DNA from: an uncultured Nitrososphaerota archaeon
Lineage (GTDB): Archaea; Thermoproteota; Nitrososphaeria; Nitrososphaerales; Gagatemarchaeaceae
DNA: 64,000 bases
NCBI GenBank assembly: GCA_963718895.1
Contig: CAVRAG010000004.1
Location: 1 to 64,000, forward strand
Reading direction: 5' to 3'
The notes under the pieces were generated by a model, which was not told the origin of the DNA, did no database searches, and saw only the letters and a program-made list of their open reading frames with translations. The number at the start of each line of letters is the position of its first letter. The stretch's first letter is position 1. Below, piece after piece: positions 2,446-64,000 of this stretch. The position numbers and the translations under genes were made by a program.

Positions 2446-3509
2446 TTAGGCGGTGTGAATCTTGAGGCTTTGTCTTGACCTGACGAGGAGTGCCAGCAAG
2501 ACAGCGCCGATAGCGGCCACCATGATTGGTGATGCGCCGAACTCAGGCACGCTGTTGCTTGGGGGTATTCCGATTGGAGGTACTGTCGCTGTCGAGGGGA
2601 TGCTTATGACCTGGGCTGCCCACGTGAGGCAGTCGCCAGAGTTGCTGCCTATGCTTGCGCTGTCAGATGTCGCGCCCAATGTCTCGGGCACCGAGTATGT
2701 CTTGGTGTCTGATAGGCTACCGTAGCTCCACGTGGCGCTGGATGTCTTGGGGTCGCTTCCGGGGAAGGCGTTGCTGTCGATCGTTACGCCGTTGTACTCT
2801 GCAAAGTTGCTGGGTAGCTGGCCGTCTAGGACGAAGAATGTGGTCGTTGCGGTGGTAGCGTCGGCCGCTCCGTGGTTGAACACGCTCGTGAGTGGGTTTC
2901 CTGAGGCTGGCTCGGTGTACGCGCCTGTGTAGACGTAGATGTTGTTCGAGGTGGCGCCGGTCGTCACGACGACGAGGCTTGCCCCATCATCCAGAGGCGT
3001 ACCATATTCGGACCAGGGGTCGTCACCATTGGTGTATCCCGACGCAAAGCCGGAGACGGTGTTCGCGCCGTTCGTCACATAGGGTGTGACGTCGGCCGCG
3101 AAGATCCACATGTCACCGCCACCCCAGCAGGGGCTGGCGTCGTTGCTCTGGTAGGTGCCGGTTATCGCGTGGCCGTTTATCGCGGCCGCATGCTAGTCCG
3201 GTCGTGGTCGGGGTTGATTATGCCCCAGATCAGGTATGCGGCCACCACGGTCCCCGTGAATGACAGGGTTATGATGCCGGAACCTGTGTTCCTGAGGGCA
3301 GTTCCTGCTGCGGTGTATTGGTAGTCGCCACCAATCTGGAGGAGCGCGGTTGGGTTGAGTGGAGGATCTGGGCCGGGCACTAGGCCTGGAGGCCAGACTC
3401 CGTTCGAGTTTGTTGGGGATGCCGACGTCGGCGCGATTCGCACGACGAGGCACAACATGATGACTGCTGCGAAAGTCAGGGTCGAAAGACTCCGTACGTT
3501 CTTCTGCAT
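2446..3509 (-). CDS. Secreted PEF-CTERM surface protein 1 (one frameshift near 3180)
   Basis: ORF 3177..3509 supplies a signal peptide. ORF 2446..3111 ends VPEFGASPIMVAAIGAVLLALLVRSRQSLK (motif, TM helix, basic tail). Confidence 0.85.
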
Positions 3510-5604: not shown

Positions 5605-6168
5605 TTATCGCGTCGCTTGTGCTGCGAACTTGCTCTTGGCGATGAGCATGGCTGGTACGGCCAATGCCATCAGGATAGCAAGTCCGAACGGGAACTCTGG
5701 GACCCTAGGTGGAGGCTGACCTGAGAACAGGCTGAATGGCTCACACGCAGCTTTTGCTGCGGGATACCCGCCAGATCCTGTTCCGCTGTACTTTGCAACC
5801 CACACGTAGTTACCTGCGGTCAATCCGGTGGTCGAGAATGTTGCCGACTGGTATGTGGTCTTCAAGCTGGTCGTCACTGTGACGGCTGGTGAGGTATACT
5901 CCAGGGTTCCAGTTGGATTACCCGAGGTACACGTGCCGCTGTAGACGTAGAAGGTGATGGTTCCGTATGGGCCCCCGTCCGAGGTGAGCTGTAGAGTCGC
6001 CGTGTCGTATACGCCTGTCCCTATGGCTGCCGAGGTAGTGGAAGCAGTGGTGGTGAATGTCTGAACAGACCAGGCAAACGCCGGTGCCACAATGCCACTA
6101 ACTCCAATCAGCACAGAGATCACGCCCAGAGTAGCGAGCGTGACGTTCTTTCCTTTCATGTTCATCAA
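5605..6168 (-). CDS. Secreted PEF-CTERM surface protein 2 (Ig-like beta domain)
   Basis: Signal peptide ending PAFA, Thr/Ser/Gly-rich beta strands, C-terminal VPEFPFGLAILMALAVPAMLIAKSK. Confidence 0.9.
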   Translation of the reverse strand: MMNMKGKNVTLATLGVISVLIGVSGIVAPAFAWSVQTFTTTASTTSAAIGTGVYDTATLQLTSDGGPYGTITFYVYSGTCTSGNPTGTLEYTSPAVTVTTSLKTTYQSATFSTTGLTAGNYVWVAKYSGTGSGGYPAAKAACEPFSLFSGQPPPRVPEFPFGLAILMALAVPAMLIAKSKFAAQATR

Positions 6169-6190
6169 GGAATTTTGACCTTAAATACCC

Positions 6191-13732: not shown

Positions 13733-13981
13733 GTCGGATTTGGAGGGATAATCCACCAGAAAATGGGCTGTTTCGGACCTCTTCAGGGAGCCTAAGCTCA
13801 TGGCATCCCCCGTTAGAGGCGGTCGCCGCAAGCACATTTCGATAGTTCTGGAAGGGCGCTTATATGGATTGCGCCGACAGCGGACCCCTGGCCCATGGCC
13901 TTGAGAGGGACTCTCCAGAAAAGTACAGGTCAGATCAGACCAGAAATTTTTAATTACGCCTGACAGATTCCATCAGAATCG

Positions 13982-14912
13982 TTGAAGTCGGGACTAACCA
14001 CCGCTATTGACTGGCGCAGGATGTCTCGCCCCAACGCATACCTTGTGGCGTTAGTGGTAGCGTTCCTGATTCCCATTGCGATCCCCGGAGTCGGGATCGA
14101 CTTCACGTATTTCTTCATCTTCATCATCGTCTTCTTTGCCTGGTTGATAATGAAGTGGGAGAGCTTCGAGGGCCTCACAAACAAGAGCACGCTCTGGGAG
14201 ACGGTCATCGGGGTGGGCGGGGTCGTAGCAGTCTACGCGTACAAGGCAGCCTCGGCCACACGCCTGGGACTACTCGATATGGTGATCATCTTCGGGGCGC
14301 TGGCGGTCGCATTCTTCGGGATCAGGTCCTACAAGCTCTTCTGGGTTCCCGCGGCCTACGGGGTCGTTCTTCTGCTCGGCTATCAGGTCGAGAACGACAT
14401 ACCGAACTACGTCGTCTTGCAGGACTGGATGGCCGGGGTCATGGCGTCGGCGATGAGCGTGCTTGGGATACCGTCGGTCGCCTCGGGCCACCTCGTCGCT
14501 GTGAATTCCAATTCAAGCTCGCCGCTCCTTCTGGACGTAGCCAGCGACTGCACCGGGAATCCAGGGCGTTCTGGCGTTCGGGCTCCTGGGGAGCATGGCT
14601 CTGATCGACGTCAAGGCGAAGCTCTCGAGGGTAATTCCGCTACTTGCGATAGGTTTCGTCGGTGTCTTCCTGATCAACATCCTGAGGCTGCTGGTCGTCT
14701 TCCTGTCATTCGATTTCCTTGGCATCTCCATTGGAAACACCGTTCACGTCTATGCAGGGTACACCCTCTTCATAATCTGGGTTCTGGTCTTCTGGGGTCT
14801 CGCCTTCAAGTACCTGTCTCCCAAACCGGCGACCGTGGTCACCCCTGTCGTACCTCCAGAGCAGCAGCCCGGTCTAGTCATTGAGACCTCCTGCAAGACT
14901 CCATTATTGTAA
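13982..14912 (+). CDS. Archaeosortase/exosortase family transpeptidase (one frameshift near 14555)
   Basis: About eight TM helices, with catalytic-triad motifs VASDCTG, INILRL and VHVYAG across ORFs 13982..14884 and 14595..14912. Confidence 0.9.
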
Positions 14913-46920: not shown

Positions 46921-47902
46921 TCATGATCTGGCCGGTGACCTCGGACAGCTCAAAGCCCCCTCGCGTACTGGACGTACTCTCTCAGGCCCGCCTCGAGGGA
47001 GACGCTCGGCTCGTAGCCTATGACCTCCTTCGCCCTGCGTGTTGTCCGAGACGAGTCTCCTGATGTCCCCCGGTTTCGGTTCGGCGTAGACGAGCGGGGC
47101 TTCGTATCCGCACGCCTTCATGACCATGAGCGCCAGGGCTTCGATGCTCACCTCGTCGCCTCCTCCGCCGATGTTCATGATCTGGCCGGCGGAACGGGCG
47201 CTCTTGTAGGCGAGCAGGTTCGCTGCGACGACGTCCCTCACGTTCAGGAAGTCGCGCGTCTGCTTCCCGTCCCCGAAGATCCTCAGCGGCTGCTTCCGGA
47301 GGGCCCTCGAGACGAAGATTGGGATCACCCCCATCTCCTCGTTGACGGTCTGCCTCGGTCCGTAGACGTTGAAGTACCTGAGCGCGACCACGTCCAGCCC
47401 GTAGTTCCTGAAGTACATCGAGCAGTAGAGCTCGGACGTGAGCTTGCTCACGCCGTAGGGCGAGATGGGGTTGAGCGGATGGTCCTCCGAGATCGGTATC
47501 TTGGTCGGATTGCCGTAGACGCTCCCGGACGAAGCGTGCACGAGCTTCACGTCGTGCTTCCTGGCGTATTCGAGCAGCCGAATCGTCCCACCGGCGTTCA
47601 CCAGTCAGGTCCGTCACAGGGTCGACGAACGAGGGGAGGAGCGCCCTCGCTGCCTCGTTGAAGACGCCGTCGAGCTTGCCCAGAGAATCGAAGTCGAAGG
47701 TCCGCACGTCTCCCTGCAGCAGTTCGAGGGAGCTTTCGACGCCCGAGAGGTTGGCGCTCTTTCCGTTCGAGAGGTCGTCCAAGACGACGACCCTGGCCCC
47801 CAGGGCGAGCAGCCGCTCGGCGATGTGCGAGCCGATGAAGCCGCTCCGCCGACGACCAAGAACCTCTTGCCCCGGAACGCCTCGGCGAGGCTCTGATTGC
47901 AT
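46921..47902 (-). CDS. NAD-dependent epimerase/dehydratase (frameshifted)
   Basis: GFIGSH, SSGSVYG, YGVSK, RYFNVYGPRQ, GDGKQTRDF. Confidence 0.92.
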
Positions 47903-49048
47903 CTACGCCGCGACCTCCCGGTACAAGGACGTGAGCTTGTCGATCATCGAGTCGAGAGTGTAGCGCTCCTCGACGGCCCGCCTGGCGTTCGTTTCCAGGG
48001 TCTTGAGATACGTCGGGTCGGTGGCGAGCCTTTTCAACTCGGAGGCCAACCGGGCGCCGTCCTCCGGCTGCATCAGGATCCCAACCCCGTCCGCGAGCAC
48101 GTCAGGGATGCCACCCGGCACGTTCGTCGATATCACCGCCTTGCCGCAGCTCAGGCCCTCGAGCACCGTGCAGGATATCGGCCCTCCGACGTTGGAGGGC
48201 AGGACAACGATGTCGGAACTCCTGTAGAGCTCGAGCAGACGGGCGTCGTCTCTACGGGACCCCTGAACTGTACTGCGCCGTCCAGGTTCAGGCCCTGCAC
48301 GTACTTCTTGTACTCCGGGGCCCTCGGCCCGCTACCCACGAGGACCAGCCTCATGCTCCGGGACCTTGCTGTGGGCGGCCACGAAGGCGTTGAGCAGACA
48401 CGTGACCCCCTTGATCTCGGAGAGCGCGCCGACGAAGAGGACCTGGGGCGCGCCACCCTCCTTCGGAGGCACCCAGAACTTCTCCTGGTCGACTCCCGTG
48501 TGGACGATCCGAATCTTGTCCTTGAGCTGAGGGCCATAGATCCTCAGCATGTAGTCCTTCACCCCCTGGGACTGGGCGATGACGACGTCGCAGTGGTTCA
48601 GGACGAACTTCTCGAAGATAGTGATGAACATCATCTCGCGCTGGCTCTTCCACCACAGATTCCTGGGCCAGAGCAGCTCCGTCCCGTGGGTCGTGACGAT
48701 CAGCGGGACGCCGAACATGTACTTGCTGGGGAGCGCCGCCAGACCTGCCGCGAGCCCGTGGACGTGGATGACGCTGAACCGCTCCTTCCTCTGGAGCGCT
48801 ATGATCATCATCATCTGCTCGAGCATAAGCCTGACCTTGTTGAGGAGCGTACCGCCGCGGAACGAGTAAGAGGAACGGCGGACGTGGATGCCCTCGAAAG
48901 TCTCTTCCTGTTTGGTGCCTTCGATACCCCTCGTCACCAGGTAGACATCGTTCCCCCGCTGCGCGAGCTTCCGCGCGTGGTCGTAGACGCACCTCGTCGA
49001 CCCGTCAATCTTCGGGTAGAACGATGACGACACGAGCAGGATTTTCAA
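47903..49048 (-). CDS. GT4 glycosyltransferase (frameshifted)
   Basis: FYPKIDG, IHVH, TTHG, LFVGALSEIKG, LEGLSCGKAVI. Confidence 0.9.
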
Positions 49049-49069
49049 TTCAGGACCCCTCTCCCGGAT

Positions 49070-50298
49070 TCATCTGGCCAGGACCTCGCCGTAGATCGAG
49101 TCGATCCTTGCGGCGACGGCCTTCCAGGTGAAATCGCGGACGACCTTTTGCCTTCCAGCCCTTCCCATCCTTCGCGCCAGTCCTTCGTCCTGGAGAACCG
49201 TCACTATCGCCCTCGCCAGGTCGGCCGGGTCGGCGAAGTTCACCAGGTAGCCGTTGACTCCGTCCTCTATCGAGTCCTGTGTGCCGCCCATCCGCGAGGA
49301 GATCGCCGGCCTCTCGCACGCCATCGCCTCTATCAGGACCTTCGGGAACGCCTCGTAGTAGGATGGCAGGACGAGCACGCTCGACATCGAGTAGTAGTTC
49401 GGCAGTCTCTCGTTGGGGACGCGGTCAAGGAGTATGACCTTCCCGACCAGGTCGTTCTGCTCGATCGAGCCCATTAAGGTAAGACCAGTAGTCCCTCTTC
49501 GGGAGCCAGGAGGGGACTCCGCCGACGCAGACCAGCATCGAGTTCGGGACCTCCTTCGTGACCGCCTTCATCGCCCGGATGAGGAACGGTATGCCCTTCC
49601 TCAGTCCGAAATGACCCACGTAAAGGACGACCTTCTTCCCTTCCACCGAGCCTTCTCGGGGAAATCCGGGTTCTCGATCGGCCTGAACAGGTCCGAGTCG
49701 ACGCCATTGTAGACCAGCCTGATCTTGTCGTCCGGAATCCCGTATCGGCGGCTGAGGTCGGACTTCACGGACGTGCTCACGGCAGCTATCCTGTCTGCCG
49801 CCGACCAGAGCGCCTTCTCCCTGATGAACGAGGTCGTCACACCCCAGCGCGAGTATCCGACTCTTATGCCCCCGAAGGCGAGCACCGTCGGGCGTGGCCA
49901 CCGAGTAGGTCGTCCCGTGGACGTGGGAGACGACCGGAGCGCTCATTGTCCGCTTGGTCGCGGCCAGGAAGGCTCCGGTCGTCGAGTGCGTGTGGACGAC
50001 GCTCGGCGAACCGCTCTTCGTCAGCTCGCGAAGCTTGGTCAGAGCGTTCAGCGTGAAGGGGTTTCCCACCCTGTGCACCTTGACACCGTCGTCCGTCTCG
50101 AGTGCCGGTTCGTTCGAGCGCCTCCGCGCTATCACGTGCACATCGTGTCCGTTCATGGCCTGGACCCTGGAGAGGTTGTAGTAGACCGGCTGGAGACCGT
50201 AGGAAGCCTTCGCCGCCGCCCGCGTACTCCGGGACGATCCGGACGACGCGGGCGGTCGAGACCGTGCGGACCTCGGGAGGCTCTAGATATTGTTCCAA
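49070..50298 (-). CDS. GT4 glycosyltransferase (frameshifted)
   Basis: VVHTH, VYNGVD, YVGHFGLRKG, EAFPKVLIEAMAC, FTW. Confidence 0.9.
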
Positions 50299-50299
50299 G

Positions 50300-51315
50300 C
50301 TATCTCTCTTCCCTTGAATCTTCCTGACGAGAATCGTGACGAGGGCGATGGAGTATCCCATCGCCATGGAGAAGTTGCGAGTCATGACGAAGATCGGGAT
50401 AGCCGAGGAAGTTCCGCTTCCTCTCGACCACCGGCCACGCGATCCTCATGATTCTCAGGGTGTTCGCGACGAAGAGGAGCGCGACGAGGAGGATGACGAA
50501 GACCCCCCAGCAGCGGCGACCGTATCAAGAGAATGACCCCAAGGACAGTAACCCAGAACGGGGCCAAGGTCTTGAGGATATCAAGTATCCGGCGGTGTTT
50601 TATGGAGTAGAGGACCCTCGTCCTGCCTCGGGTGAACCACTTCTTGGCCAGCTGGGGGGTGGTCTGGTCCCTCCTGTGCCGCCAGTTGACCCCCGGCACC
50701 CAGGCCACCGCGTAATGGGCTTTCTCGAGCCTCCTGAAGAGGTCCTTGTCCTCCCCCTGGAAGAGCTTCTCGTCGAACCCGCCGAGCTTCAGCAGTACCT
50801 CCCTCCGGTAGACCCAGGCGTAGAACGGCTTGATCTTCCCCTGGTCCAGCAGCCTGTGCTGGACCTTGTTCTCGATGTCGATGGACTCGCGTTGCGAGCG
50901 TCGACCGGGTGATCAGTGGGGCGCCGGTGAGACAGACGGCACCTGCCTCCGGCTCCGAGTCCAGGCGCTCCACCGCCTTCTGCAGGTAGGACTCGTCATA
51001 GACGCAGTCGGACTCGGCAAAGAAGACGATCTCTCCCCTGGCCCTCTCGACCCCCACGTTCCTGGCGTGGGACGCGCCGCCGTGGTTCGTCTCCACGACG
51101 GTCACGTCCTTCCTGCCCGAAGAGAGGTCCGTCGCGACCTGCGTCCCGTCGGTCGACCCGTCGTCGACCAGGATTATCTCCCTGTCATGGTACGACTGCC
51201 GGTCCAGCTCTGCCAATACCTCGGCGACCTCACCTGCAGAGTTGTAGAGAGGCAGGACTATCGAGACCTTCGGCGTGCCGTTCGGCTCCTTGAGTTCGCG
51301 CTGTTGTGGAATCAT
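50300..51315 (-). CDS. GT2 glycosyltransferase with C-terminal TM helices (frameshifted)
   Basis: VSIVLPLYN, EIILVDDGSTDGT, ARNVG, GGFDE, EDKD, hydrophobic C-terminus. Confidence 0.88.
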
Positions 51316-51329
51316 CGATGGTCGACTCG

Positions 51330-52564
51330 CGGCGTCAGTTCGCTGGTGTTCCGTCGGCACTGACGACCGCCTCGAAGATGTCTCCAGCTGCTTCGCGACG
51401 ATACTCCAGGAGTAGTTGGCGATCACAGACTGCCTTCCCGCTGCGCCCACCTTCTCTGCCGCTCTCTGTCCTCGAGCATCCTCAGGATGGCAGAGCCAAG
51501 CGCCTTCGAGTCTCCCGGAGGTATGAGGTAGCCGGTGACCCCGTCCTGGATCGGGTCGGAGATCGGCTTCACGTCTGTGGTTATCACGGGCTTGCCGACG
51601 GCCATGTACTCGAAGACCTTGAGGGGCGACCCGAGACCGTGCTTACGGACCTGCTCGGTCGACTCAATTCTCTCCGGGTTGTAGGGCGCCACCAGCACGT
51701 CGCTTGCGTTCATGTACTTCGGGACCTGCTCGTACTGGATCGGGCCAGTGAAGATGAAGGAATCGGCGATCCCGGCCGCGGCGACCTTTCCTGGGTCTCC
51801 TTGTAGTAGGGTCCGACCATGAGGAACTTCACGTCGCTCCTTGATCGTGTAGGACTTCCTGCGCGGCCTCGATCAGCTCGCTCAGACCGTGCCATTCCTG
51901 GAACGTCCCGACGTATCCGACGACAGGCGAGTCGCCGAGGGAGTACCTCTCCCTGACCTCCTCGCCGGAGGCCGGGTCGGGCCTGAACGTCTCCGTATCG
52001 ACGGCGCCCGTCACGAGCACGACCTTGGAGGCCTGCTCCTTGCCCTCGAACATGCCCTTCGAGTAGGCGATTATCTTCCTGGACTGGCTCAGCTGAAGCC
52101 CCGTGACGCGGTTCCCTATCACCTCCAGGACGAGAGGCCTCCCGGTCAGCATGCTCGCCATCGCCCCCGCCCCGAAGGAGGTCTCCCTCTCGAAGATCAG
52201 GTCGATCGAGCTCTCCTTGACGACGCGGGCGACTTCCACGGCTATGTAGACCGGAAAGACCGTCCGGAGGTACGCCTCGTAGGACTTCCACAGCAGACGT
52301 CGAGGTGTTGCCCCGGTACGAGCCCCGCGCCTGGGTGTCTGAGAAGCTCGACCTCCTCGATGAGAAGAAGATGCCCCGCTGGAACCTGTGGATGGTGACT
52401 CCGTCGAGCATCTCGAGGCTCGGCTGGGACGAGTTGACTCGGCGGGCCACTACGTGCACCTCGTGACCAAGCTTGGCCAGGTTGCGGGCGAGCTCGTAGA
52501 CATGAGTGGAGGAGCCCCTGTAGTGGGGGACCGCGACGTCCGCCGCGACATAGCAGATCCTCAT
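51330..52564 (-). CDS. GT4 glycosyltransferase (frameshifted)
   Basis: GHEVHV, GYVGTFQEWHG, SPLKVFEYMAVGKPVI, YSW. Confidence 0.9.
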
Positions 52565-53196
52565 CGTCTTGATTCTCCAGCCTAGAGGAATGGAGGATGG
52601 TAGCTCCCCGGGACATAGTCGAACGGTTGCTTCTTCCTCTCGCCGATGACCTTGGCCGGATTGCCACCGACGACGCTGTAGGCGGGGACATCCTTGGTGA
52701 CGACGGCCCCGGCAGCGACGACTGCCCCCTCTCCTATTGTCACTCCGGCCAGCACGATCGCGTTGGTGGCAATCCACGCCCAGTCCTCGATCGTTATCGG
52801 CTCATACTTTGCCTCGAAGCTTCGGCGAGTTTACGTCGTGCTTGGCCGTTATTATCACGGCCCCGTCTGAGACGTTGACGTTTCTTCCCTATCTTGACCC
52901 CTCCTGTGCAGTACAAGGCTGGCCCTCCCCACGAAGCTCCCGTCTCCCAGCTCGAGCTCGTTCGGGCTCCCCAGGTAGACTCCTCGGCGGATCACGCAGC
53001 CCTTGCCGATCTTCATGCCGATCCTGCGGTACAGGTAGAGCCTCAGTCTCAGGCCGTGAAGCCGACCGATGTTGTATGCGAGTTTGGTTGCAAGGTACGA
53101 ATGCTTCGTGTTCCGGACTCGGGGAGGAGCGACGGCCGTGCCGATTCCCGTGCCGGTAGGTCGACCGGGCGGGTCCAGCCTCACGGTCGGATTCAC
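52560..53196 (-). CDS. Hexapeptide-repeat (LbH) sugar O-acyltransferase (frameshifted)
   Basis: [58 protein letters not shown]. Confidence 0.88.
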
Positions 53197-53567
53197 TCAT
53201 CGGTCAAGCACCGCGTGATGGTCTGTGGAAGTGATCGTAGGCGAGGAGGAATATCGTCAGGGCTGGGACTACCAACTTGATGGGAAGGGATCTCGCTGCC
53301 CGGTATGATTGTCTGGAGGGAGTACACAGAGAGAAGAATGCCGATGCTCCAGGCGAGCGTATAGAAGAGCGTCTCCAGGAGCGTGCCCGTGTTCCGAAGG
53401 AGCAGGGCGGCGAAGTATCCGGGCACGAGGATGAAATACGGCAGGATGATCAGGTTCGAGACCGTGGCGAATCCCGGGATGATGGTGGCCATCACGATTA
53501 TTGAGTAGACCACCACGACGGCATTGCGCAGCTGCTCCCGAGCGACTTTCAGGCCCGCGATTTCCAA
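53193..53567 (-). CDS. Small membrane protein, DUF1616-like
   Basis: LPYFILVPGY...LE...SIGI pattern with four TM segments. Confidence 0.6.
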   Translation of the reverse strand: MEIAGLKVAREQLRNAVVVVYSIIVMATIIPGFATVSNLIILPYFILVPGYFAALLLRNTGTLLETLFYTLAWSIGILLSVYSLQTIIPGSEIPSHQVGSPSPDDIPPRLRSLPQTITRCLTDE

Positions 53568-55690
53568 TTTCCTCTCACGTATTTCTCTATGGCTGCAAGC
53601 CCAAGGATCACGGCTGCGAACGCGAAGCCGGCGACGAGCCCAGGCACTACCGCTATGACGGTCTTGTCGGGCGTCATCTCGCCTACCCTGACTCCTCCGT
53701 CTCCTATCATCAGGGCGACGAGCAGCAGGCGAGCACGGTCGTCGTACGGCCCATCCTCTTCAGGTAGGCGAGGGGGATGAGACCGGCGAAGAAGAGAATC
53801 TTTCCCGCAGACAGGAGGTAGACGGGGCTGGCGTCCCCTCCCAGCGCCGCGCCGAAGCCGTAGATGAATCCCTTGAGCGAGAGCGAGTTTGAGAAGGCGG
53901 TCCCGAACGCATAGTTGCCCAGCGGGAAGAGGAGCAGGATGCCCTGGTACACATACTGTCCGATGTAGAGAGGATTGGCGAGGAGAATCAAGGCGACTCC
54001 GGCTATCAGGGCAAAGTCGGCCTTCTTGACCTGCAATCCTCCCTCCGCGCCCACCGCGCCCATCAGGACTCCGAGGAATCCTGCGGCCAGTCGTGGAGTA
54101 CTTCCCCCTCCGAAGCCCAGAAGGCCTATGGCCGTGATGTCGTGGGCGTCCGAGTTCACGGCGTGCAGCGAGAGAGGGACTGCAAGAATCGAGCTGGTAA
54201 CGACGTAGATGGTCTCGCTGAAGAAGAAGACGAATACGCCCGCTCCAATCAGCATGACCAGATGGGAGAGATCGGTCGTGGTGCGCGATTCGGAGGTGAG
54301 GGACCCGAGATACGCCCATCCCAGGAGGACGAGCACCATGGAGAGGACGGCCTCCACTGCGAGGAGGACCTTGAACTCCCCGTTGCTCAGGCTGATGCCG
54401 AGGATGTTGGTTCGCTGATTGAGTGAGAGCTGGAGCTTCAGCGTGGTCTGCTCCGGGCCCGTCAGGTTTGCCGCGTTCCCGACCGGCAAGACTTGGTCCG
54501 GGTAGAGATTCTTTATCAGAGTGTAGGTGATGGTATCGTCTGGCACGGTGTTGTCAACGACGATAACCGGAACGTTCCCTAGGTTCGGCAGGATGAAACC
54601 ACTTGTTTGGCCCACTGTTGGGTATAGTCTGAAAACACGAGATGTTGAACTGACCGACGCTCGACATCACGTTGAAGTCCGTGTAATCCTGCGTAGGGGT
54701 GAGGACCTGCACGTTCCCAAACATCGGCCTGGAGTTCGTTTCCTATCTGCTAGTGGTGGTCGGCTGACCAGCGATGACGTAGGCCTTCACTCTCGGGTCT
54801 GGGCCACCGAGGGCGCCCAAGGCCACCATCACCAATGCGCACAGAATGAAGAGTGCGAGCAGCTTCCGGGGCTGGAAGAGACCTCTGAACTTGAAACCCT
54901 TTCGCGACCCGAGGAACGGGATGGCTCCGGTGATGGCTTCGACTCCGCTCTTCAGCTGACTGGAGATGGCGTCGAACAGCTGCCTACCCTGCGCGAAGAG
55001 GTTGAGCGCCGCCAGAGCGACCACAGCCAGGGCGGCGACCGTGATAGCGATGCTGGCCGGCAGGAACGACGACGACTGGAATATGAGCAGTCCACCTATG
55101 GCGCGGCGAGTACGTTGTATGTCACCTGATCCGGCTCCGCTACTCGGTTGACCGAGACAGTAGCCGAGAGGAAGAGTTCACGCCCTTGCCGCTGTAGACT
55201 TGCGAGAGGATGGTTCCAGAAGGAACGGTGATGAAGAACGTTGGGGCTCAATGCGAAACCTGTAGAAGCTGACGACAACGGGACGCCGGCCAGATACCTC
55301 CAGAGAAAACTTGCCCCACTCTCATGACCCTTGCATGGTGATGCTGAAGGAACTGTCACTGGAATTGACATTGAAAGTGGTGATGTACTCGCCACCGGAA
55401 GGACCGGTCTGACTGGTTCGCGTTGAGTCCAGTTATCGTAGGCTTGAAGAGGGTAGTGATTGTGAAGACGTCCCGGAAACGAGCAGAGTGCTCCCGTTGA
55501 TTGAAACGGTGACTGGGTTCGTGTTTCCCCCGTAGACGTCGTACAGCGGCTGAACCTGTTCGGTTACAGTGAAACCAGTAAGACTGGAACCGCTGGAAGA
55601 CTGAGCGTGGGCTGGACTCGCAGAGAGAGCATCATGATCAGCATCAGCCCCGAAATCAGTCCCAAGAGAAGGATGCGGTGACCTGGCCAT
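53549..55690 (-). CDS. Large multi-pass membrane protein with N-terminal extracellular domain, function unknown (frameshifted)
   Basis: ORFs 55433..55714, 55096..55395, 54743..55024 and 53710..54615 join into signal peptide, beta domain, TMs, loop domain and about eight further TMs. Confidence 0.65.
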
Positions 55691-55695
55691 GCAAT

Positions 55696-57460
55696 CTAGA
55701 CTACCGTCCTCCAAACAGAGACTATGTCAGCGCCCTCTCTCGATTAGCGACCTTCTGACCAGACGTCTCTGCTCAAGCTCTCTCAGCGACGAATCCAACC
55801 GTTCGGTGTCTGAGCGGCGCCGACAGACCCGCGCCCGACGCCAGCTCTTGGCCTGTCCCGGCGTGGTGCGCCTGCTTCAGCAGACCTGAAAGGTAGGACC
55901 AGTTCTCTGTGTCTGGGCAGACGCCATGGTAAGAAAGCGGTCGAGTCGCTCGTCCAGGAGGCTCGCACGATGCGCCGCCCACACTATGAGCGCCACAGAT
56001 GATGCAAGAAGCACGAACGTGCTCGCGAGCACTCCCCCCTGATCCAGCGTGAACAGGAAGTCCGTCCAGCCCGAGAACGAGGAGTCCCTCGTGATTCCGG
56101 GGAGCCACAGAGCATTCAGGTCCCCGAGGAACTGGGTGGTGTCTGCGGTCACGTTGGAGTTCCTGAACTCCCTCATGAAACCGAAGCCGACATAGTACTG
56201 CACGAACTGGCTGCCGTTCGATGAAGAGCATTGATGTCTTTCCCTGATAGGCCAGCATCACCCGGTCCGGGGCCACGTAGGTCGTCAGGTGACCCTGAAA
56301 CGGTCCGACCACGGTGAAGATGTTCGAGCCCCTGTTCCATCCTGGGATATCGTTGCCGAACGAGTTGTTGGTGTAGGGCGTTGGCAGAGCCGACAGTTCG
56401 TAGTAGACCGTGTAGTTCTTGGTCTCCGGATGATAGAGCGGCACGTACACCTGCTTTATGGCGTATGCGTCGTTCGTGAATTGGGGACTTGACACCGAGA
56501 TGCTCTCTGTAGACAGCCGTGGAGTTGATCTGCCAGCCTGGCGGCGTCGGCGGCGTGATCGTCCCCGAGTATCCGTGGGACGAGTAGTACGCGTCGTAGG
56601 GTATGCCTCCGGCGAACCCCAGCGCCGGTACCGTGGTGAAGATCAGCAGAGCAGCGACCGCGAGGACGGCCAGGAAGCCCCAGACGCCGACGTTCTCGCC
56701 CGTCCTGGGCCGCGCGAGCTTCGACCCGCAGACCGAGCAGAACCCGTCTGGGAGCAGGTGATGTCCGGGACACGCCTCCGCGGTCGCGCCGCTTGGCAGC
56801 GAAGCGAAGGAGCGAATCCTGTGGGACGAGGAGGGCGAGCAGAGGGAGGGGGACGAAGAGAGCTGTATCGACCTGATGGCCTGACAGCGGGAACGAGGTT
56901 TCGCTCCGAGCGAGGAGCCCCAGATCATGATCGCGAACGGGATGATCATCGCCTTCAACCGGAGTCCCACGAAGGTCAGGAAGAAGAGGAACACTAGGTC
57001 TGCGGAGAGGAATGTCACGACCTCCTGGTCGTTCGAGCCAGGGAAGAAGCCAACCGGAGGAACAGCCAGGACAAGATCGCCAGCAGCGGCGCGAGGGACC
57101 GGAGGATCCCGGTCCCTATCCTGAGAGCGACGTAGCCGACTGTCAGGAAGAAGAGCGACTCGTAGTGGTACCAGGCGCTATTCGCCGAGTAGGAACCGTA
57201 GACATAGAGCAGAGCGCCACGCCGAGGAAAAGGAGCCCCCAGATGAAGCTTATCTTCGAGAGCTCAAGGCGAGTCCTCAGGATTCTCCTCTTCAGCACCA
57301 CGCCGAGCAGGAACAGCGAGACCGTAACCGCGAAGAACGCTCCTTCGCCGTCCGAGATGATGAGAGTATAGAACTTCGAAAAATCAAAGAAATAGATGGC
57401 CACCAGTATCGGGACGAGCGTCAGCAGCTTGGTGACCGTCCCCGGGATGGTATTGCCCAC
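55696..57460 (-). CDS. Exosortase-N-like membrane protein with Zn-knuckle, EpsI-like extracellular domain and C-terminal wHTH; no catalytic triad seen (frameshifted)
   Basis: N-terminal TM pattern (..LKRRIL..GLLFLG..YGS..SLFFLTVG..IG..LRSL), CPGH...CSVC, PPTPPGW domain, and tail TGQELA...LDSSLRELEQRRLVRR...VW. Confidence 0.6.
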
Positions 57461-58233
57461 TAGGTGCTCACCAGGACGGTCGGTCCGAAGCGCATCGGAA
57501 TGGTCCAAGCTCCTGTGTCGGTCTCGCGCACGCATCGTTCAAGGAGAACCTGCTTGTTCGTCGCCGCGCTGACAAGGACCGCGAGGAAGCTTGCGACTGC
57601 GCACCCTACCGAGCCCTTCGATGTTGGGTCTTGTCTGGCCTATGCCGCAGGTGCAGGTGGTTGAAGCGCCGTGAAGGGTCACGTCGACCCTGTCGTCCGT
57701 CGAGACGATGTCCACGGAGCGAGCCAGCCCAAAGTTCTCCCGCATCGCCTCGGGCAGCGAGGCGCGCAGCACGTCCATCGTGAGCTGGGTCGCGCCGGTC
57801 TCGCGCACGTAGAGCTTCGCGAGCCCCCGTCCTGGCGGCGTGATGCCTCCGCGGAAGGAGCGCTCGAGGGAGCGCCGTTGGGCAGAGCCGCCCCTTCGGC
57901 GCTCTCGGGGATTATGACGACCATCTCGACGCCGTCGCCGGTCGGCACATAGGTGAATCCGGCGTCGGAGGCCGATAGCTCGCCTATCGCCTCGTCTGTC
58001 GACCCCAGCACGGCATCGAAGACCCTGGCCTGGACCCTGGCCCGAGGGTCCTTGAAGAGCAGGACGATCGCCGCCAGGAAGGCGACTATCGAGTCTATCT
58101 CGAAGACGATGAACTGGTCGGAGACCGCGATGACGAGGAAGACGACGCTGAGCACGATGAAACCGATGCCCGCATACCTGGAGTAGCGTCCGACCTGCCC
58201 GTACAGCTTGGAGAAGACGTTCACGTCAGGCAT
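57460..58233 (-). CDS. Membrane protein with two N-terminal TMs and a Cys-containing V4R-like C-terminal domain (frameshifted)
   Basis: TM hairpin, TYVP, ITPPG, CTC...GCAVASFLAVL...KQV. Confidence 0.6.
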
Positions 58234-58288
58234 CAGACTCTGGAACTCCGAGGGGCTTCGGAACAGAATCGACCTATGGGCAACAGAC

Positions 58289-60444
58289 TCAGGCTCGGGA
58301 TGCCTTTCTCGCCGCTTCGTCCACCCTGAAAGTCAGCTCGGTCGCCGAGAACACCTCCTCCGAGGTTATGATGGAGGAGTCGGCGCCGCGGAGGAACTTC
58401 GCAAGCTCGGCGAACTCGGTCGAGTGCCCCTTGTCGGCCCTGCCCAGGCTGACGGTCTCGGGCTGGGGGCCGTAGATCTGGAGCTCCTTGAAGTCGTCGA
58501 GGACCATGGAGGTCCCCTGGCCGAAGACCTCCATCCGCTCCCTGTCCATGTCCTTGGACCCCATCGCCACGTAGAGGAGGGTCGCCACCGAGCCGTCCGG
58601 GTAGTCCAGAGTGATCGAGAGGTTGTCGCGGGCGACCGAGCTGGAGCCGTTTATCCCTGCGGAGCGGACGACTATCTCCGGGCCGTCCTGGCCGAGCAGG
58701 AAGTTGAACAGGTCGAAGAAGTGGCAGCACTCGTGGATGATCCTCCCGCCGCCCACGAGAGGGTCCTGGGACCATCTCGACGCCTGGACGAACCCCGCGT
58801 TGACCCTGTAGTTTATCATGAAGGGGCCGTCGATCTTCCTCATCCTCGCCTTGACCTTCAGGACGAGCGGCGCGTACCTCCTGTTGAACCCGACGATCAC
58901 CGGCTGCTTCAGCTCGGCGTGCAGCTTCTTGATCTCCTCGAACTCGCCCCGGGTGATGCAGAGGGGCTTCTCGACGAGGGCGGTCTTGGCCGCCTTCATC
59001 GCCGCCCATGAGCATGGGCGCGTGGAGGTTGTTCGGGGCGGTTATGACCACGAGGTTCGTCTTCGGGTCGTTCAGGACGTCGTCGTAGTCGCAGGTGCTC
59101 TTCTCGAAGCGATAGCGAGAGGCCACCCTCGTCGCGTGGGTCGGGTTCGAAGAGACGACCCACCTCAGGTTGAACTCAGGGCTGGCTCTCATGAGAGGGA
59201 TCAGGGTCTCCTTGGCGAAGTTCCCCGGCCCCACCACCGCGACGTTGATCTTGCCTGTCACTGGGGTGCGCGACTGTCGCCGGCTGCGCAGCCTTCTTGG
59301 ATCCTCACAGGCGCCTGCTGAACGTCGTAAGAGAGCAGGACCGCCGTCTTCGCCTGCTTCCCGAGGGAGTCATAGGCCTCCGGGGCCGAGGCGAGGGGGA
59401 ACTCCGAGCCGACCAGACCGCCGACTCGGACGCGTCCGGACGAGAGCAGCTCCATGAAAGACTCCATGTTCCTGTTGAGCGTCCACCTGACGTACTCCAC
59501 TGGATAGTCCACGCCCTTCTCCTCGTAGACGGGGTCGTAGCGCCCAGGACCCAGCGACCGGGACATCAGCAGGCTGAGCTCCTTCTGGTAGAAGTCCTTC
59601 CGCTCTATCTCCATCCCGACCCTTCCGACGACCACTATCCTGCCCCGGTTCCTCGCAATCCGGCCGGCCATGTTCAGCGGGTCGCTGCTCGAGGTCGCCG
59701 CGCAGACCAGGACGTGGTCCAGGCCGATTCCTCCCGTGAAGTGGGAGATGTGCGAGACCATCGCCGGGTCGTCCGGCTTCAGGGTCAGGTCGACTCCGAG
59801 CTCGGCCGCCAGCGCCAGCCGGGACGTCCTTGAGGTCGATGCAGACGACCCTGCACCCGGATGCCCTCGCTATCTGCGCGACCAGATTGCCCACGAGGCC
59901 CGCCCCTATGACCCCCACGGTCTCCCCTACCTGGAGCTGGCTCGTCCTCACGGCGTGGACCGCTATCGCGCCGATGGTGGCGAAGGCCGCGTCCTTCATC
60001 GGCAGCCCTGCGGGGCACCTTGGCGACGAGGTTCCTCGGCACCGAGACGAGCTCCGCGTGGCACGCCTTGCCCTCTCCGGCGCAGGCCACCCTGTCCCCG
60101 ACCAGCACGTCCTTCACGTTCTGTCCCACCTCGATGACGACGCCCGATGAGCTGTAGCCAAGGGTGACCTCGGGGTGGCGCACATAGTCCGCGTAGTCGA
60201 TGAGACCCCCGATGCCCTCCTGCCGTATCACCTCCCTCGAAAGCCTGAGCGCCTTGCCGGCGAGCGACGAGTCCTTGATCAGGTCCGTCGTGGCGAGCGG
60301 GTCGGTCGAGTCGATGGTCCATGATTCGGTCCCGGTGCTTATCACCGAGTAGTTTGTCTGGACGAGGAGCCCGTTCTCCCCGCAGACCGGAGCCGGGACG
60401 TCAGCGACGACGACCGTGCCCGCTCGTGCTATGACTTGCTTCAA
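58289..60444 (-). CDS. Bi-domain oxidoreductase (MDR/ADH-like plus Gfo/Idh/MocA), sugar-modifying (frameshifted)
   Basis: SVISTGTE, LGYSSSG, HAE, GAGLVG, SRSLGPGRYDP.YEE.G.DYP, RWT..RNM, then VEKPL, VGFNRRY, GGGRIIHECCHFFD. Confidence 0.92.
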
Positions 60445-61420
60445 CGCGCCTCACCCATGACCTCGGGGGCCGTTTTGAACCAATCTACGAACATCCTCAG
60501 CCCTTCGTCGAGGTCGACGGCCGGGGTCCAGTGGAGCAGCTCGGCCGCCTTCCGGTTGCTCGCCTGTGTGTCCGGAAACTCGCCCGGGCCCTCCGCGACG
60601 TAGGTCGGAGGGATTGCCCTTCCTGGGCTTATGATCTGGGTCAGCCTCTCTGCGAGCTCCGATACGGAGGTCCTGGACCCGAAGCCGATGTTGAAGACCT
60701 CGCCTCCGAGCCCGTCGTTCTGGGCCGCCAGGATGTTCGCGGCCACTATGTCCGTTACGTAGGTGAAGTCGCGTGTGTGGGACCCGTCTCCCTGAATGAC
60801 CGGCGGCCTTCCCTTCTGCGAGGCTCTTGGTGAACTTGTGTATCACCTGGTCAGGGCGGCCCCTCGGCCCGTAGACCGAGAAGTAGCGGAGCGACACCAC
60901 GTCCGTCCCGTAGACCCTGTGGAACGCCCTGCAGTACTGCTCCGCCGCGAGCTTCGAGACCCCGTAGGGCGAGGTCGGGTTGGTCGGATGGTCCTCGTCG
61001 ATAGGGAGGTACTCCGGCCTGCCGAAGATCGAGGAGGACGAGGCGTTGACTATCCGCTCGCACGCCGTGCTTCTTCCCCAGCGAGAGGACGTTGAGGGTC
61101 CCGTTGACGTTGACGTTGTTGACCTGCACCGGATGCTTGACGCTGAACCCTATCCCCGCCTGGCCGGCCTCGTGGAAGACGACGTCCACGTCTTTCATCG
61201 CCGAGTCCAGCCTGTCGACGTCGAGGATGTCGCCGTTGACGAGCCTGAACCGCGGGTTGTTGACCGCGCCTGCGAGGTTCCTCTCCTTGCCCGGGTAGAA
61301 TTCGTCGAAGCGGTCGTACACGGTGACCCGTGCGCCCATGCCAAGCAGCCTCTCCGTCAGGTGGGAACCGATGAACCCGGCGCCCCCGGTGACCAGCACC
61401 TTTGCACCGTCGAGGTTCAG
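60441..61420 (-). CDS. NAD-dependent epimerase/dehydratase (frameshifted)
   Basis: TGGAGFIGSH, YGVSK, LRYFSVYGPRGRPD, TRDFTYV. Confidence 0.9.
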
Positions 61421-62600
61421 CTTCCCGCCTCCGCTTGTTCGTAGATCTTCTCGAGGTTTGCCGTCAGCACGGAGTAGCGGTTCCCCCGCACCCTCTCCTT
61501 GCCTCGCCTTCCAAGTTCGGCCGCCAGAGCTGGGTCTCTCAGGACCTCTGCGATCTTCCCCGCGAGGAGGCGCGAGTCGCCGTACTCGACCAGGAAACCC
61601 TCCACGCCGTCGGTGATCTGGTACGGGATTCCTCCGACGTTCGTCGCCACCACCGGCTTCCCCTGGGACATGGCCTCGAAGATGGCCTGGCTCGTACCCT
61701 CGTAGGTCGTGGGCAGCACGAAGACCGTGGCCGAGGCGTAGGCCTGCATCTTCTCCTGAAAGTCGTAGATCGGTCCGAGGAAGTGGACTGAGGAGGTGAC
61801 TCCCAGCCTCGAGGCCTGTGTCTTTAGCGTCTCGGAGTACCCAGACTGGTCCGCCCCGACGAAGACGAAGGACGCGTCGGGGAACTCCTTGAGGATCGAC
61901 GGGGCTGCCTCGAGCAGGTGCTGGGGGCCCTTGAGCGGGTTCAGCCGCCCTAGGAAGAGGACGACCGGCCAGCCGGTCGATCTGGTACTTCGTCATGAAG
62001 GGCTTCTCGTCGAAGACCCCGAGCGATTCGTCGCGGATCCCCGAAGGCGTGACGACCATCCGGTCAGCGTCGCCGCCCAGCTTGAGCAGAGGAGGGATGA
62101 GGTTGGGGGCCCGGACCAGGACCTTGTCGGCGGACGGTAGCGTCCTCTTCCCGAGGTACCCCTCCATCAGCTTCATCGGGAACTGCTTGTACCAGGTACG
62201 GGGGATCATCGAGTGTACGTCGAAGACGGTCAGGGCCGTGGCGCTGTGGGTCTTCTCCGCTGCCTTGAGGGCGACCCGGCTGTGGGGCTGGGCGTAGTCG
62301 TAGGTGTGGATGACGTCGAACGACCCGGCCGTCAGCGCCTCTCCGAGGCCCTTCCAGACCTTCATGCGATAGGACCAGTCCAGCCTCATAGGCAGCCTGT
62401 GCACGTTTATCCCGTCTACGACCTCGCTCGCCTTGGCCTCGGTCCCGTTGCACCTGGCCGCGGTGAAGACGTGCACGTCGTGCCCCTTCCGCGTGAGCTC
62501 CCTCGAGATGTTGTAGACGTACCACTCGGCTCCTCCGACCATGAAGGGCGTGAAGAAGACGTTCACCTGTGCGATCTTCAGGCTCTCTGCCTCGGGTCAG
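61417..62600 (-). CDS. GT4 glycosyltransferase (frameshifted)
   Basis: VGGAE, FDVIH, LGRLNPLKG, EGTSQAIFEAMSQGKPVVATNVGGIP. Confidence 0.9.
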
Positions 62601-62617
62601 ACGCCATGCAGGCCATC

Positions 62618-63502
62618 TCAGTTGCTTTCAGCGCGAACCACCGTTCTCGACGCCATGGTGGAGTCGAAGTGGTCGGCGATCTCCCCCATCGTGCACAGAG
62701 CAAGGACGCCGCGACGGTTCATCTCGCGCAGATGACTGAAGACGGGGTCCAGGGTCTTGACCATGGGGTTCGGGTCTCCTCCCATGACGATGCTCCAGGG
62801 ATGGGTCCAGAGATGGAAGACCGCGGATGTCTGGGAGCAGAGGTCGGCGTACTTCATGATCAGGGACTCGGCCCCGAAGGACTTCTGGTCGACGTAGTAG
62901 ACGGGCCTCTCGTTCCAGAGCCCGTTGCTGCGGTCGGGCGGTCCGATCACCCTCTCCTTTCCCCGGTAGGTCTTGAAGCCCAGCTTGCGTAGGACCTCGA
63001 AGTGGTTCTCTCTGTTCCAGGGGAACACGAACGTCCTCGGCGCGGACCGCATGTCCAGCGCGTCCAGGCACTTCCTGATGTCCTCTTCGAACTCGGCGGG
63101 ACCGCACTTGAGCGCGTCCATGTGGGAGTAGGTGTGTATCCCTATCTCCTGCCTGACCGGGGAGTCGAGTATCCGGTGGTAGCTTTCTGGTTCCTCGACG
63201 GCCGTCTTGCCGCATATCGCCCAAGTCAGGGGGACCTCGTATCGCTGCGAGAGCTCGAGGAGCTTCTCCGTTCCGGCGCGATTCGGCCCGTACCTGTCGC
63301 TCTGGGTGACGTCGAAGTCGACCGAGATGCAGGCTGCGGCCTTCGCACCACCGGGATAGCTGGTCCCGGGAGGAGGCGCGTCGTAGGCGATCTTGATCTC
63401 CCTGAGCACGCCCCGGGTGACGAAGCCAGCGCCGACCGAGGCTGAGAATCGGGCGCCGTCAAGGGCGGCGTTCTTCATCGTCCTCTTGAGATTTAGCCCC
63501 AT
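62618..63502 (-). CDS. Polysaccharide deacetylase family protein
   Basis: ISVDFD, PLTWA, EIGIHTYSH, FVFPWN, HLWTHP. Confidence 0.88.
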   Translation of the reverse strand: MGLNLKRTMKNAALDGARFSASVGAGFVTRGVLREIKIAYDAPPPGTSYPGGAKAAACISVDFDVTQSDRYGPNRAGTEKLLELSQRYEVPLTWAICGKTAVEEPESYHRILDSPVRQEIGIHTYSHMDALKCGPAEFEEDIRKCLDALDMRSAPRTFVFPWNRENHFEVLRKLGFKTYRGKERVIGPPDRSNGLWNERPVYYVDQKSFGAESLIMKYADLCSQTSAVFHLWTHPWSIVMGGDPNPMVKTLDPVFSHLREMNRRGVLALCTMGEIADHFDSTMASRTVVRAESN

Positions 63503-63531
63503 TTCAGGTCACCCGGCGGGTTTGAGGCGCC

Positions 63532-63581
63532 ATGAAGTTCAGAACCACAAGCATGAATCTCAGCCTTCACTAGCCTTAAAT
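63532..63581 (+). promoter_or_regulatory. Fourth tandem-operator plus TATA promoter, facing the plus strand
   Basis: ATGAAGTTCAGAACCAC - 4 nt - ATGAATCTCAGCCTTCAC - 5 nt - TTAAAT; the same layout as the three PEF-CTERM promoters with one extra base. Confidence 0.6.
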
Positions 63582-63606
63582 CGGAAAAAACGCCACTATC
63601 ACAACT

Positions 63607-63672
63607 GGGTGTGTGGGGGCTTAGGAAACTGCCCTCGTGACCGTTGAGGTCTGGGGGCATTTCCGCACACCC
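63607..63672 (+). ncRNA. Candidate small structured RNA (long hairpin)
   Basis: Starts 25 nt after the TATA. Pairings GGGUGUGU/GCACACCC, GGAAA/UUUCC, UGCCCUC/GGGGGCA and GACC/GGUC. Two G-U pairs work only on the plus strand. No plus-strand ORF longer than 12 codons starts here. Confidence 0.5.
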
Positions 63673-63689
63673 TCTTCTCGGCCAATTCC

Positions 63690-64000
63690 TCAAGAGAAGA
63701 GTCTTTCCCTGAAGAGTTTGTAGTCCTGCAGGACCTTCAGACCGTCGCTCGTCGCCTGATAGTACTTCCCGCCGAGCGTCGCCTCCATGCTGATCAGTCC
63801 GCTCCGCTCCAGGTCGTCGACTATCGTCTTGAGCTCGGTGTAGGAGATGTTGGCGGCCTTCATGATGTGGGTGGTCCTCAGAGGCCTTAGGGAGGTGGCC
63901 TGGATTATGTCTATCCGGATCTCCATCTTCGACCTCCTTCTGAGGGCCGCCTCCTCGCGGGGCGCCTCGTAGAGTCCCCTGATCTCGTCGATTATGAGCT
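63690..64000 (-). CDS. Archaeal winged helix-turn-helix (HTH_45-type) domain protein, 5' partial
   Basis: RRSKMEIRIDII...TTHIMKAANISY...L...GLI...YQATSDG; the frame stays open to the window edge. Confidence 0.85.
   Translation of the reverse strand, partial: LIIDEIRGLYEAPREEAALRRRSKMEIRIDIIQATSLRPLRTTHIMKAANISYTELKTIVDDLERSGLISMEATLGGKYYQATSDGLKVLQDYKLFRERLFS

Follow-up and report, generated by a model that had tools for sequence, protein, structure and literature searches.

A gene on the minus strand of a 64,000-nucleotide stretch of DNA from an uncultured Nitrososphaerota archaeon (contig CAVRAG010000004.1, positions 1 to 64,000, assembly GCA_963718895.1; hereafter the window) raises the question of what a membrane protein may be that starts like an exosortase and then lacks the catalytic segments of that enzyme. 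Exosortases and archaeosortases are widespread, and EpsH and EpsI are associated with polysaccharide loci. To our knowledge, no role has been established for the fused or adjacent EpsI domain. A first, sequence-only reading of the window took the protein for a pseudo-exosortase joined to a zinc knuckle, an EpsI-like domain and a C-terminal winged helix, reused as a scaffold or sensor within a glycan operon, with catalysis supplied by a sortase at 14 kb. The answer reached here, to which we assign a probability of about 0.9, is that the protein belongs to a family of non-catalytic, shortened members of the four-module archaeal exosortases. Judged by sequence comparison, the module order is inherited, namely exosortase domain, zinc ribbon, transmembrane (TM) helix, outer domain, TM helix and winged helix. 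The first five or so exosortase helices are kept on the same grounds, and the part bearing Cys, Arg and His is lost, with poorly conserved helices in its place.

Pfam and NCBIfam searches with the frame pieces of the window returned nothing usable, and the analysis moved to intact orthologues. Four genomes of the same genus carry full-length open frames of 587-628 amino acids (aa) when the longest start is taken, or 576-594 aa as called for the exact or nearest stored counterparts of those frames; two further orthologues are interrupted by contig ends. A profile search of 1.84 billion representative sequences gave 104 proteins at E<=1e-3 and 55 at E<=1e-30. Of the 130 proteins stored, 78 are full-length (524-631 aa) and form the short-form alignment, A2, with a core set of 62. 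The link to exosortases came into view through longer relatives. A search of relatives with the exosortase profile PF09721 led to two other families of the order, whose proteins of 723-748 aa have an exosortase domain that is complete (E 1e-22 to 1e-26). After it come a CxxC...CxxC element, a TM helix, a large outer domain, a second TM helix and a tail ending in VWK. A further search brought 57 such long forms from Brockarchaeota, Bathyarchaeia and Hodarchaeales, labelled at most as "exosortase/archaeosortase family protein", and the search of representatives also returned long forms.

Profile-profile alignment with hhalign joins the two groups over their whole length. The 62 short forms align end to end with 52 long forms at 99.9% probability (E 1.2e-33, 566 columns). 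The TM part of the short forms taken separately aligns with the long-form exosortase domain at 98.2% (E 4.8e-14) over 135 columns, corresponding to short-form columns 2-136. The long forms in turn align with 33 bacterial exosortase-EpsI fusions at 99.4% (E 9.8e-22), and their Cys (CSG), Arg (NxxR) and His columns coincide with the bacterial catalytic ones. In the joint alignment, the Cys and Arg columns are gapped in all 78 short forms, and not one of the 78 carries the His; relative to the long forms, about 100 residues of the catalytic half are missing. Arg and His are present in every one of the 52 long forms, 39 of which have Cys as the nucleophile and 13 Ser. The pseudo-exosortase proposed from the window is therefore upheld across its homologues: profile and structural matches were found, and no triad reappeared. 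Direct recognition of the short forms is fainter. PF09721 scores 19.2-23.7 bits on the orthologues, always at profile positions 4-138 of 254 and below its cut-off of 25.7, and the NCBIfam exosortase/archaeosortase models (TIGR04178/TIGR02602) do not match them, so that the target family lies outside the exosortases and archaeosortases by curated score cut-off. A protein-atlas look-up of the target pointed to archaeal PF09721 clusters at 0.88, which serves as a lead only. The long-form profile found nothing meaningful among solved structures by sequence (best E 0.23).

In a quick, unrooted FastTree phylogeny of the columns outside the catalytic half, the support values of which are local only, all long forms and one secondary truncation of 631 aa fall into a single clade (support 100), and the remainder of the tree consists of short forms. 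At least two changes between the long and the short state are required. Since the long state is common to bacteria, the short forms probably arose by deletion. A rival reading is that the protein is still an enzyme, catalysis having shifted to other residues, such as His99, Ser102 and Arg114, or to a different reaction. Ser102, Tyr110, Arg114 and Lys57 are nearly invariant in the 62 core members, the H-x-x-S element is common to short and long forms, and the Ser-for-Cys replacement in 13 of the 52 long forms illustrates that nucleophile swaps exist in the superfamily. However, the long forms carry the same residues beside a full set of Cys, Arg and His, which makes a structural or substrate-binding role likelier. 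Moreover, the active-site segment is wholly deleted rather than substituted, and the outer-domain Cys, which in long forms occurs only together with the catalytic Cys, is also gone. A retained enzymatic activity is accordingly regarded as very improbable.

The target is a ten-helix membrane protein of about 587 residues, the modules of which are listed in the table. An AlphaFold2 model of the orthologue from genome G011, built from an 82-row alignment, reached a predicted local distance difference test score (pLDDT) of 89.7 and a predicted template modelling score (pTM) of 0.81. It shows membrane helices as far as residue 220, then short strands around the zinc site, a helix at 260-275, a beta-rich domain at 277-432, a long helix at 437-514 that includes TM helix 10, three further helices and a beta-hairpin. 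A crude hydropathy scan is consistent with this topology. The assignment of the N-terminal half to the exosortase fold draws on the hhalign match to the long forms, the sub-threshold PF09721 hits on orthologues and the helices of the model. Conserved residues in the short forms lie in this half, in the zinc ribbon, in the outer domain and in the tail, and residues 115 to 233 contain no nearly invariant column; as far as sequences tell, the family is kept by selection. Foldseek with the whole 587-residue model gave weak matches only, one of them at E<=0.001, to an unrelated transporter-GFP chain, with MTC28 and LpqN at about 0.03-0.07; an alignment-based wide structure search yielded more.

Table. 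Target gene, its predicted modules and associated genes in the window.
Feature	Position	Strand	Remarks
Target gene	55696..57460	-	about 587 codons conceptually; frame broken by nine 1-nt indels
N-terminal half of exosortase membrane domain	57055..57457	-	residues 2-136; about five TM helices; motif LYxYGSYS...WxHYES
TM helices 6-8, poorly conserved	56788..57054	-	residues 137-225, replacing catalytic half; no Cys/Arg/His equivalents
Predicted cytoplasmic zinc ribbon	56695..56787	-	residues 226-256; C231-x2-H234-x7-C242-x2-C245; strands in model
TM helix 9	56620..56685	-	residues 260-281; hydropathy and model
Extracytoplasmic beta-rich domain	56051..56619	-	residues 282-470; Mog1p/PsbP-like fold in model; EpsI's position in bacterial fusions
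TM helix 10	55973..56029	-	residues 478-496, within single long helix 437-514
Predicted cytoplasmic winged-helix domain	55699..55918	-	residues 515-587; three helices and beta-hairpin wing
Upstream partner gene	57539..58233	-	248-343 aa in relatives; two TM helices, soluble domain with CxC...GC; frameshifted
Downstream partner gene	53549..55694	-	720-732 aa in relatives; frameshifted; no family found
Small conserved membrane protein	53193..53567	-	113-121 aa in relatives; several predicted TM helices; last of four-gene core
Exosortase/archaeosortase	13964..14881	+	PF09721 33.7 bits, above cut-off; frameshifted near 14557

The zinc ribbon is predicted from two ligand pairs on two knuckles. Among the 62 core members, position 231 is Cys in 52 and His in three, His234 is found in 57, and Cys242 and Cys245 are found in all, a conservation that bears out the zinc knuckle of the sequence-only reading. 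The long-form ribbon has four Cys, and the target family has the pattern C-H-C-C. Matches to Pfam zinc ribbons are weak and limited to four of 82 proteins. The C-terminal winged helix assigned in the same reading is likewise reproduced by the model, with three helices followed by a beta-hairpin wing, and the tail aligns with the long-form tail at 97.3% (E 2.7e-11).

A membrane protein with a zinc ribbon and a winged helix on its inner side may bring to mind a tethered one-component regulator, in which the outer domain would sense the state of the surface glycan or a ligand, and the winged helix, with the zinc ribbon, would bind DNA at the membrane and so control the glycan cluster. The tail lacks the basic, conserved surface on the recognition helix and wing that DNA binding calls for. 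Its mean net charge is about zero (range -6 to +7), at -0.15 in the 62 short forms and +0.12 in the 52 long forms. The recognition helix is conserved at core leucines only, its surface varies, and the residues that are kept in the tail are acidic or belong to the core (Glu539, Glu563, Glu574, Asp578, Leu562, Trp583). Pfam searches with eight tails returned no match below E 0.05; the best was HxlR at 0.098, and no helix-turn-helix (HTH) family could be named. The fold also matches winged helices that do not bind DNA, such as those of RPA32C and ESCRT-II. The neutral charge, the variable surface of the recognition helix and the missing HTH family therefore speak against sequence-specific DNA binding. 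DNA binding by the zinc ribbon and the winged helix is thus improbable, which weakens the proposed sensor in the sense of a DNA-binding regulator, and the regulator is a rather unlikely alternative.

The outer domain had been called EpsI-like, a likeness that fold and position suggest but that the sequence does not show. The PF11984 (EpsI/DUF3485) profile finds none of the 82 family members at E<=0.01, and in hhalign comparisons with 33 genuine EpsI domains the short forms reach E 0.11 and the long forms 0.078, which is the level of the negative controls (0.1-0.28). A PF11984 scan was silent in 61 genomes of the order, but control genomes were equally silent, so that this result is uninformative. 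In terms of structure, the outer domain of the target and that of a genuine bacterial exosortase-EpsI fusion folded for comparison (pLDDT 83) match the same solved chains, 6e8a, 6e5d, 5yfg, 2xb3, 7cu8, 3lyd and 6xrb. The folded EpsI domain matches DcrB (8.0), LpqN (7.9), Mog1 (7.6), PsbP (7.4), TiME (7.4), 3lyd (6.8) and SciW (6.7). This comparison of models suggests indirectly that the two domains share fold and position, and common descent via the long forms is plausible. The best local alignment places the long-form H-x-W-E-x-C over the bacterial H-P-P-E-x-C; the Cys of the EpsI motif is invariant in the 33 bacterial fusions, and that of the long-form motif occurs in 31 of 52 proteins. Among the 62 short-form members, Cys reaches 30% in none of the outer-domain columns and the Cys of H-x-W-E-x-C is gone, leaving the short forms without both the catalytic and the outer-domain Cys.

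Within the long forms, the residues at the nucleophile and outer-domain positions are Cys/Cys in 31, Ser/Ser in 13, Cys/Ser in eight and Ser/Cys in none (counted in the long-form alignment, A4, with loci including L009:1429-3597 and L010:1339-3582). All 13 long forms with a Ser nucleophile thus have Ser at the outer H-x-W-E-x-C position as well, and the outer Cys never occurs without the catalytic one; the link is not strict. Two sequons of the outer domain are conserved in the target family, NST at residue 313 in 59 of 62 members and NYT at residue 349 in 60 of 62, and the target protein itself may be N-glycosylated.

The gene as given in the window cannot be translated in one frame. It runs from a GTG start at 57460 to a TAG stop at 55696-55698, exactly the ends proposed earlier, and every string quoted at that time (CPGHHLLPDGFCSVCG, TITPPTPPGW, TGQELA, LDSSLRELEQRRLVRRSL and the terminal VW) is present in the six-frame translation, spread over three frames. 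Compared with the intact orthologue from G011, to which it is 87.2% identical over all 1839 nucleotides (nt), the reading frame switches nine times, at single-base indels at 57220, 57072, 56923, 56821, 56508, 56218, 55910, 55813 and 55729, none of which lies in a long homopolymer. The indels at 56923 and 57072 match the deletion artefact that had been suspected near 56900-57050. The possibility that these frameshifts are biological and that the gene is a true pseudogene in this genome gains some room from six of the nine sites, which lie outside the coverage of independent reads. Several observations argue against it. Counting frame-breaking gap runs (length not divisible by three), the target gene has nine in 1.84 kb (4.9/kb), and the syntenic 17 kb (window 47080-63998 against G011) have 87 per 16,982 columns (5.1/kb); the surrounding glycosyltransferase, epimerase and dehydrogenase genes are likewise split between frames. 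The source genome comes in just 11 contigs, yet its marker completeness is 80.5%. The correct-frame pieces of the target contain no in-frame stop and no larger lesion. Only two public sequencing runs contained about 5% of the gene's words. Short-read contigs of one run are 97% and 88% identical to the window and lack the indels at 57072 and 56821, and one contig ceases to align at 56923; they cover 10 of 30 bins of the gene and three of the nine indel sites. Since neighbouring genes match the indel density and the short-read contigs of close relatives lack the window's indel at two covered sites, the frameshifts are almost certainly assembly noise, the gene being intact in the organism, and a true pseudogene is extremely unlikely. 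Programmed frameshifting or another genetic code was rejected, as the indels are evenly spread across all neighbouring genes. Most genes of the window (1-64000) are split between frames. With about 5 indels/kb in the assembly, any apparent pseudogene in it calls for caution.

Named records place the target family only in Nitrososphaerales/Thaumarchaeota, with Candidatus Gagatemarchaeum among them. A word-based search returned 33 proteins of 568-612 aa, all annotated as "hypothetical" and all from metagenome-assembled genomes of Thaumarchaeota or Nitrososphaerales. A search for related loci with a six-row alignment gave nine loci, with Candidatus Gagatemarchaeum stordalenia among the named records. 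Matches came from 8 of the 22 genomes in the genus and from 14 of 151 genomes sampled across the order, G000 being one of the 14. In this sample, just two further members of the same family supplied full-length short forms, one of them, G154, having two weaker full-length matches, and one partial short-form match came from another family. The remaining matches are N-terminal and belong to open frames of 326-774 aa, seven of which have the size of long forms (610-774 aa).

The gene order around the target is the same in G011, G021, L039 and L040, of which the loci L039 and L040 are only 42% identical. A polysaccharide deacetylase, a family 4 glycosyltransferase (GT4) and an epimerase, followed in three of the four loci (not L040) by an alcohol dehydrogenase-GFO/IDH/MocA fusion, lead to a four-gene core. 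This core opens with a two-helix protein (248-343 aa), continues with the target and a larger membrane protein (720-732 aa) and closes with a small membrane protein (113-121 aa). GT4 genes come next in all four loci; a hexapeptide acyltransferase precedes them in three and a family 2 glycosyltransferase (GT2) stands alongside in three, neither being present in L040. The window reproduces this order between 63.5 kb and 49 kb. The core thus lies inside a glycan cluster (GT4, GT2, epimerase, deacetylase, acyltransferase) in all four short-form loci examined and in the window, and both long-form loci examined lie amid GT2, GT4, oxidoreductase and flippase genes. The four core genes abut or overlap, and none has a Pfam family. 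No family match was found for the upstream partner. In the downstream partner, a signal peptide leads into a secreted domain that measures about 215 aa, and an internal FLP[AT]S + TM + basic element precedes about ten TM helices; a search of solved structures by sequence with a 721-aa representative returned nothing meaningful, and a protein-atlas look-up gave no usable match.

Some further features of the cluster were recorded. At the cluster head, the three loci that reach this far (G011, G021, L040; L030:59-1393, L029:17761-18996, L040:179-2065) encode DUF354 (glycosyltransferase-like) fused to an HTH_45 winged helix, which gives the cluster another enzyme-like protein that ends in a winged helix. 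The fusion of a zinc-type alcohol dehydrogenase with a GFO/IDH/MocA oxidoreductase measures 716-744 aa and lies directly upstream of the core (L030:4636-6783, L039:2774-5005). A UDP-glucose/GDP-mannose dehydrogenase contains an intein-like insert of the LAGLIDADG type (window 2-2302, minus strand; L029:13370-15496), and an epimerase from this cluster in G021 matches LAGLIDADG and intein splicing.

From the selection pattern and the synteny, we lean slightly towards a pseudo-enzyme that acts as a non-catalytic adaptor of the membrane machinery of the glycan cluster. On the outer face, the retained exosortase helices and the Mog1p/PsbP-like domain, probably N-glycosylated, would hold a partner, for which the 720-aa neighbour, the two-helix protein of 250-340 aa or the nascent surface glycan are candidates. 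On the inner face, the zinc ribbon and the uncharged winged helix would form a docking surface for soluble enzymes of the cluster. Any transpeptidation would come from a separate enzyme, the obvious candidate being the co-occurring exosortase at 14 kb.

The orthologues of this 14-kb exosortase have the Cys, Arg and His that the target lacks. Of 22 genomes of the genus, six have both genes, two have the short form alone (one of them a weak match), two have the sortase alone and 12 have neither, a count that is suggestive only, since related genomes are not independent and several are incomplete. In three genomes both genes lie on one contig, at distances of 42, 36 and 34 kb. Conserved synteny and co-occurrence led us to infer that the 14-kb exosortase may supply catalysis for the pathway in trans. 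A second copy of the 14-kb type, split by a frameshift and 83-85% identical to the G001 query, was noted on a different contig of the same genome (G000 contig C2:10255-11134). Near the exosortase, the window at 2449-3192 and 5608-6180, both on the minus strand, encodes proteins ending in VPEF, a hydrophobic helix and basic residues in the manner of PEF-CTERM signals.

The same co-occurrence and spacing also count in favour of another reading, in which the target or its 720-aa neighbour would be a substrate or decoy, presenting an element that resembles a sorting signal (motif, TM helix, basic residues) to the catalytic exosortase. A cut in trans would then free the outer domain or the tail, much as in regulated proteolysis, and the dead exosortase half would merely hold the signal. 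The neighbour indeed contains a conserved internal FQxxxFLP[AT]S[IV]AI + TM + GR/GK element that looks like a mid-protein sorting signal (L030:9379-11541), and a review states that signals of archaeosortase A (ArtA) can sit away from the C-terminus (PMC9263693). However, this element lacks the PEF motif, unlike the probable substrates of the 14-kb enzyme, and TM helix 10 is part of one continuous, confidently modelled helix. Besides the kinship of the genomes counted, G005, which is 90% complete, has the short form, whereas a sortase of the 14-kb type was not found in it with the query used. The substrate or decoy is an unlikely explanation. By analogy with inactive rhomboids, a dead intramembrane sortase might instead use its retained helices to capture the neighbour's FLP[AT]S segment or its own TM helix 10, its EpsI-like outer domain, zinc ribbon and winged helix then coupling glycan assembly to a cytoplasmic output, and the co-occurring PEF-type exosortase may cut the target in trans. 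We consider this archaeal counterpart of inactive rhomboids a long shot; if true, archaea would have a novel route for transmembrane signalling or quality control, and the function of EpsI and of the non-catalytic half of exosortases would come to light.

Several points weigh against the reading of the target as a dead exosortase that serves as an adaptor. PF09721 gave only 19.2 bits for the G011 orthologue against a cut-off of 25.7 and no match for the G021 orthologue, and at E<=0.01 it finds just 15 of 82 proteins in a set that includes four long forms. Aligned directly with bacterial exosortases, the short forms give a weak match (E 0.016), and the outer domains of short and long forms aligned alone reach E 0.007 with a probability of 5%. 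The nearly invariant Ser102 and Arg114, together with the common His99, leave room in the retained half for an unrecognised activity. Conserved neighbours are no proof of a complex. Finally, the nine indels, if real, would make the gene dead in this organism, and independent reads correct just two of the nine sites, a contig breaking off at a third.

If the target family is what it appears to be, it represents a natural separation-of-function variant in which the catalytic half and both functional cysteines are gone and the other modules remain under selection. These modules are kept, and kept in glycan clusters; they should therefore have a job of their own, probably that of holding partners during the assembly of surface polymers, and the family offers a clean system for asking what they do. 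The locus also draws attention to a membrane core of four unannotated genes that Gagatemarchaeum-like Thaumarchaeota carry in their cell-surface island. These are non-ammonia-oxidising archaea of peat and acid soils, and we know of no study of their envelopes. A full-text search of the literature, subscription journals being outside its scope, found no description of an exosortase that bears a winged helix or is non-catalytic. As far as could be seen, neither the catalytically dead derivative nor its fixed position in a four-gene core has been described before.

Among known systems, LpqN, DcrB, TiME, Mog1 and PsbP have extracytoplasmic or soluble Mog1p/PsbP-like domains that match the outer domain at 8-13% sequence identity and with middling scores; the resemblance is one of fold alone. 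Inactive rhomboids (iRhoms, Derlins) are intramembrane pseudo-proteases that bind clients without cutting them. Like the target, they preserve the fold of a polytopic membrane protease although the catalytic residues are gone, and their non-catalytic domains are conserved. This is an analogy only: the folds are unrelated, half of the fold is deleted in the target rather than merely mutated, and client binding by the target is hypothetical.

ArtA of Haloferax volcanii belongs to the same superfamily and acts in an archaeal cell-surface context, but it has its active-site region and no fused modules, whereas the target has no equivalent region; Cys173, Arg214 and Arg253 are required for ArtA activity according to a review (PMC9263693). 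In the bacterial exosortase-EpsI fusions (PF09721 + PF11984; XrtD TIGR04152, XrtW NF038142), as in the target, the exosortase membrane domain is followed by a TM helix and then by an outer domain whose fold appears to be Mog1p/PsbP-like in both. Unlike the target, these fusions have no zinc ribbon, second TM helix or winged helix, and they keep Cys, Arg and His as well as the invariant outer Cys. The closest relatives are the archaeal four-module exosortases of 650-760 aa, also found in other Nitrososphaerales (G032, G027). The target family differs from them in the loss of Cys, Arg, His and about 100 residues, in its C-H-C-C ribbon and in the replacement of H-x-W-E-x-C; it shares with them homology over the whole length, the same module order and topology, the winged-helix tail and a location in glycan clusters.

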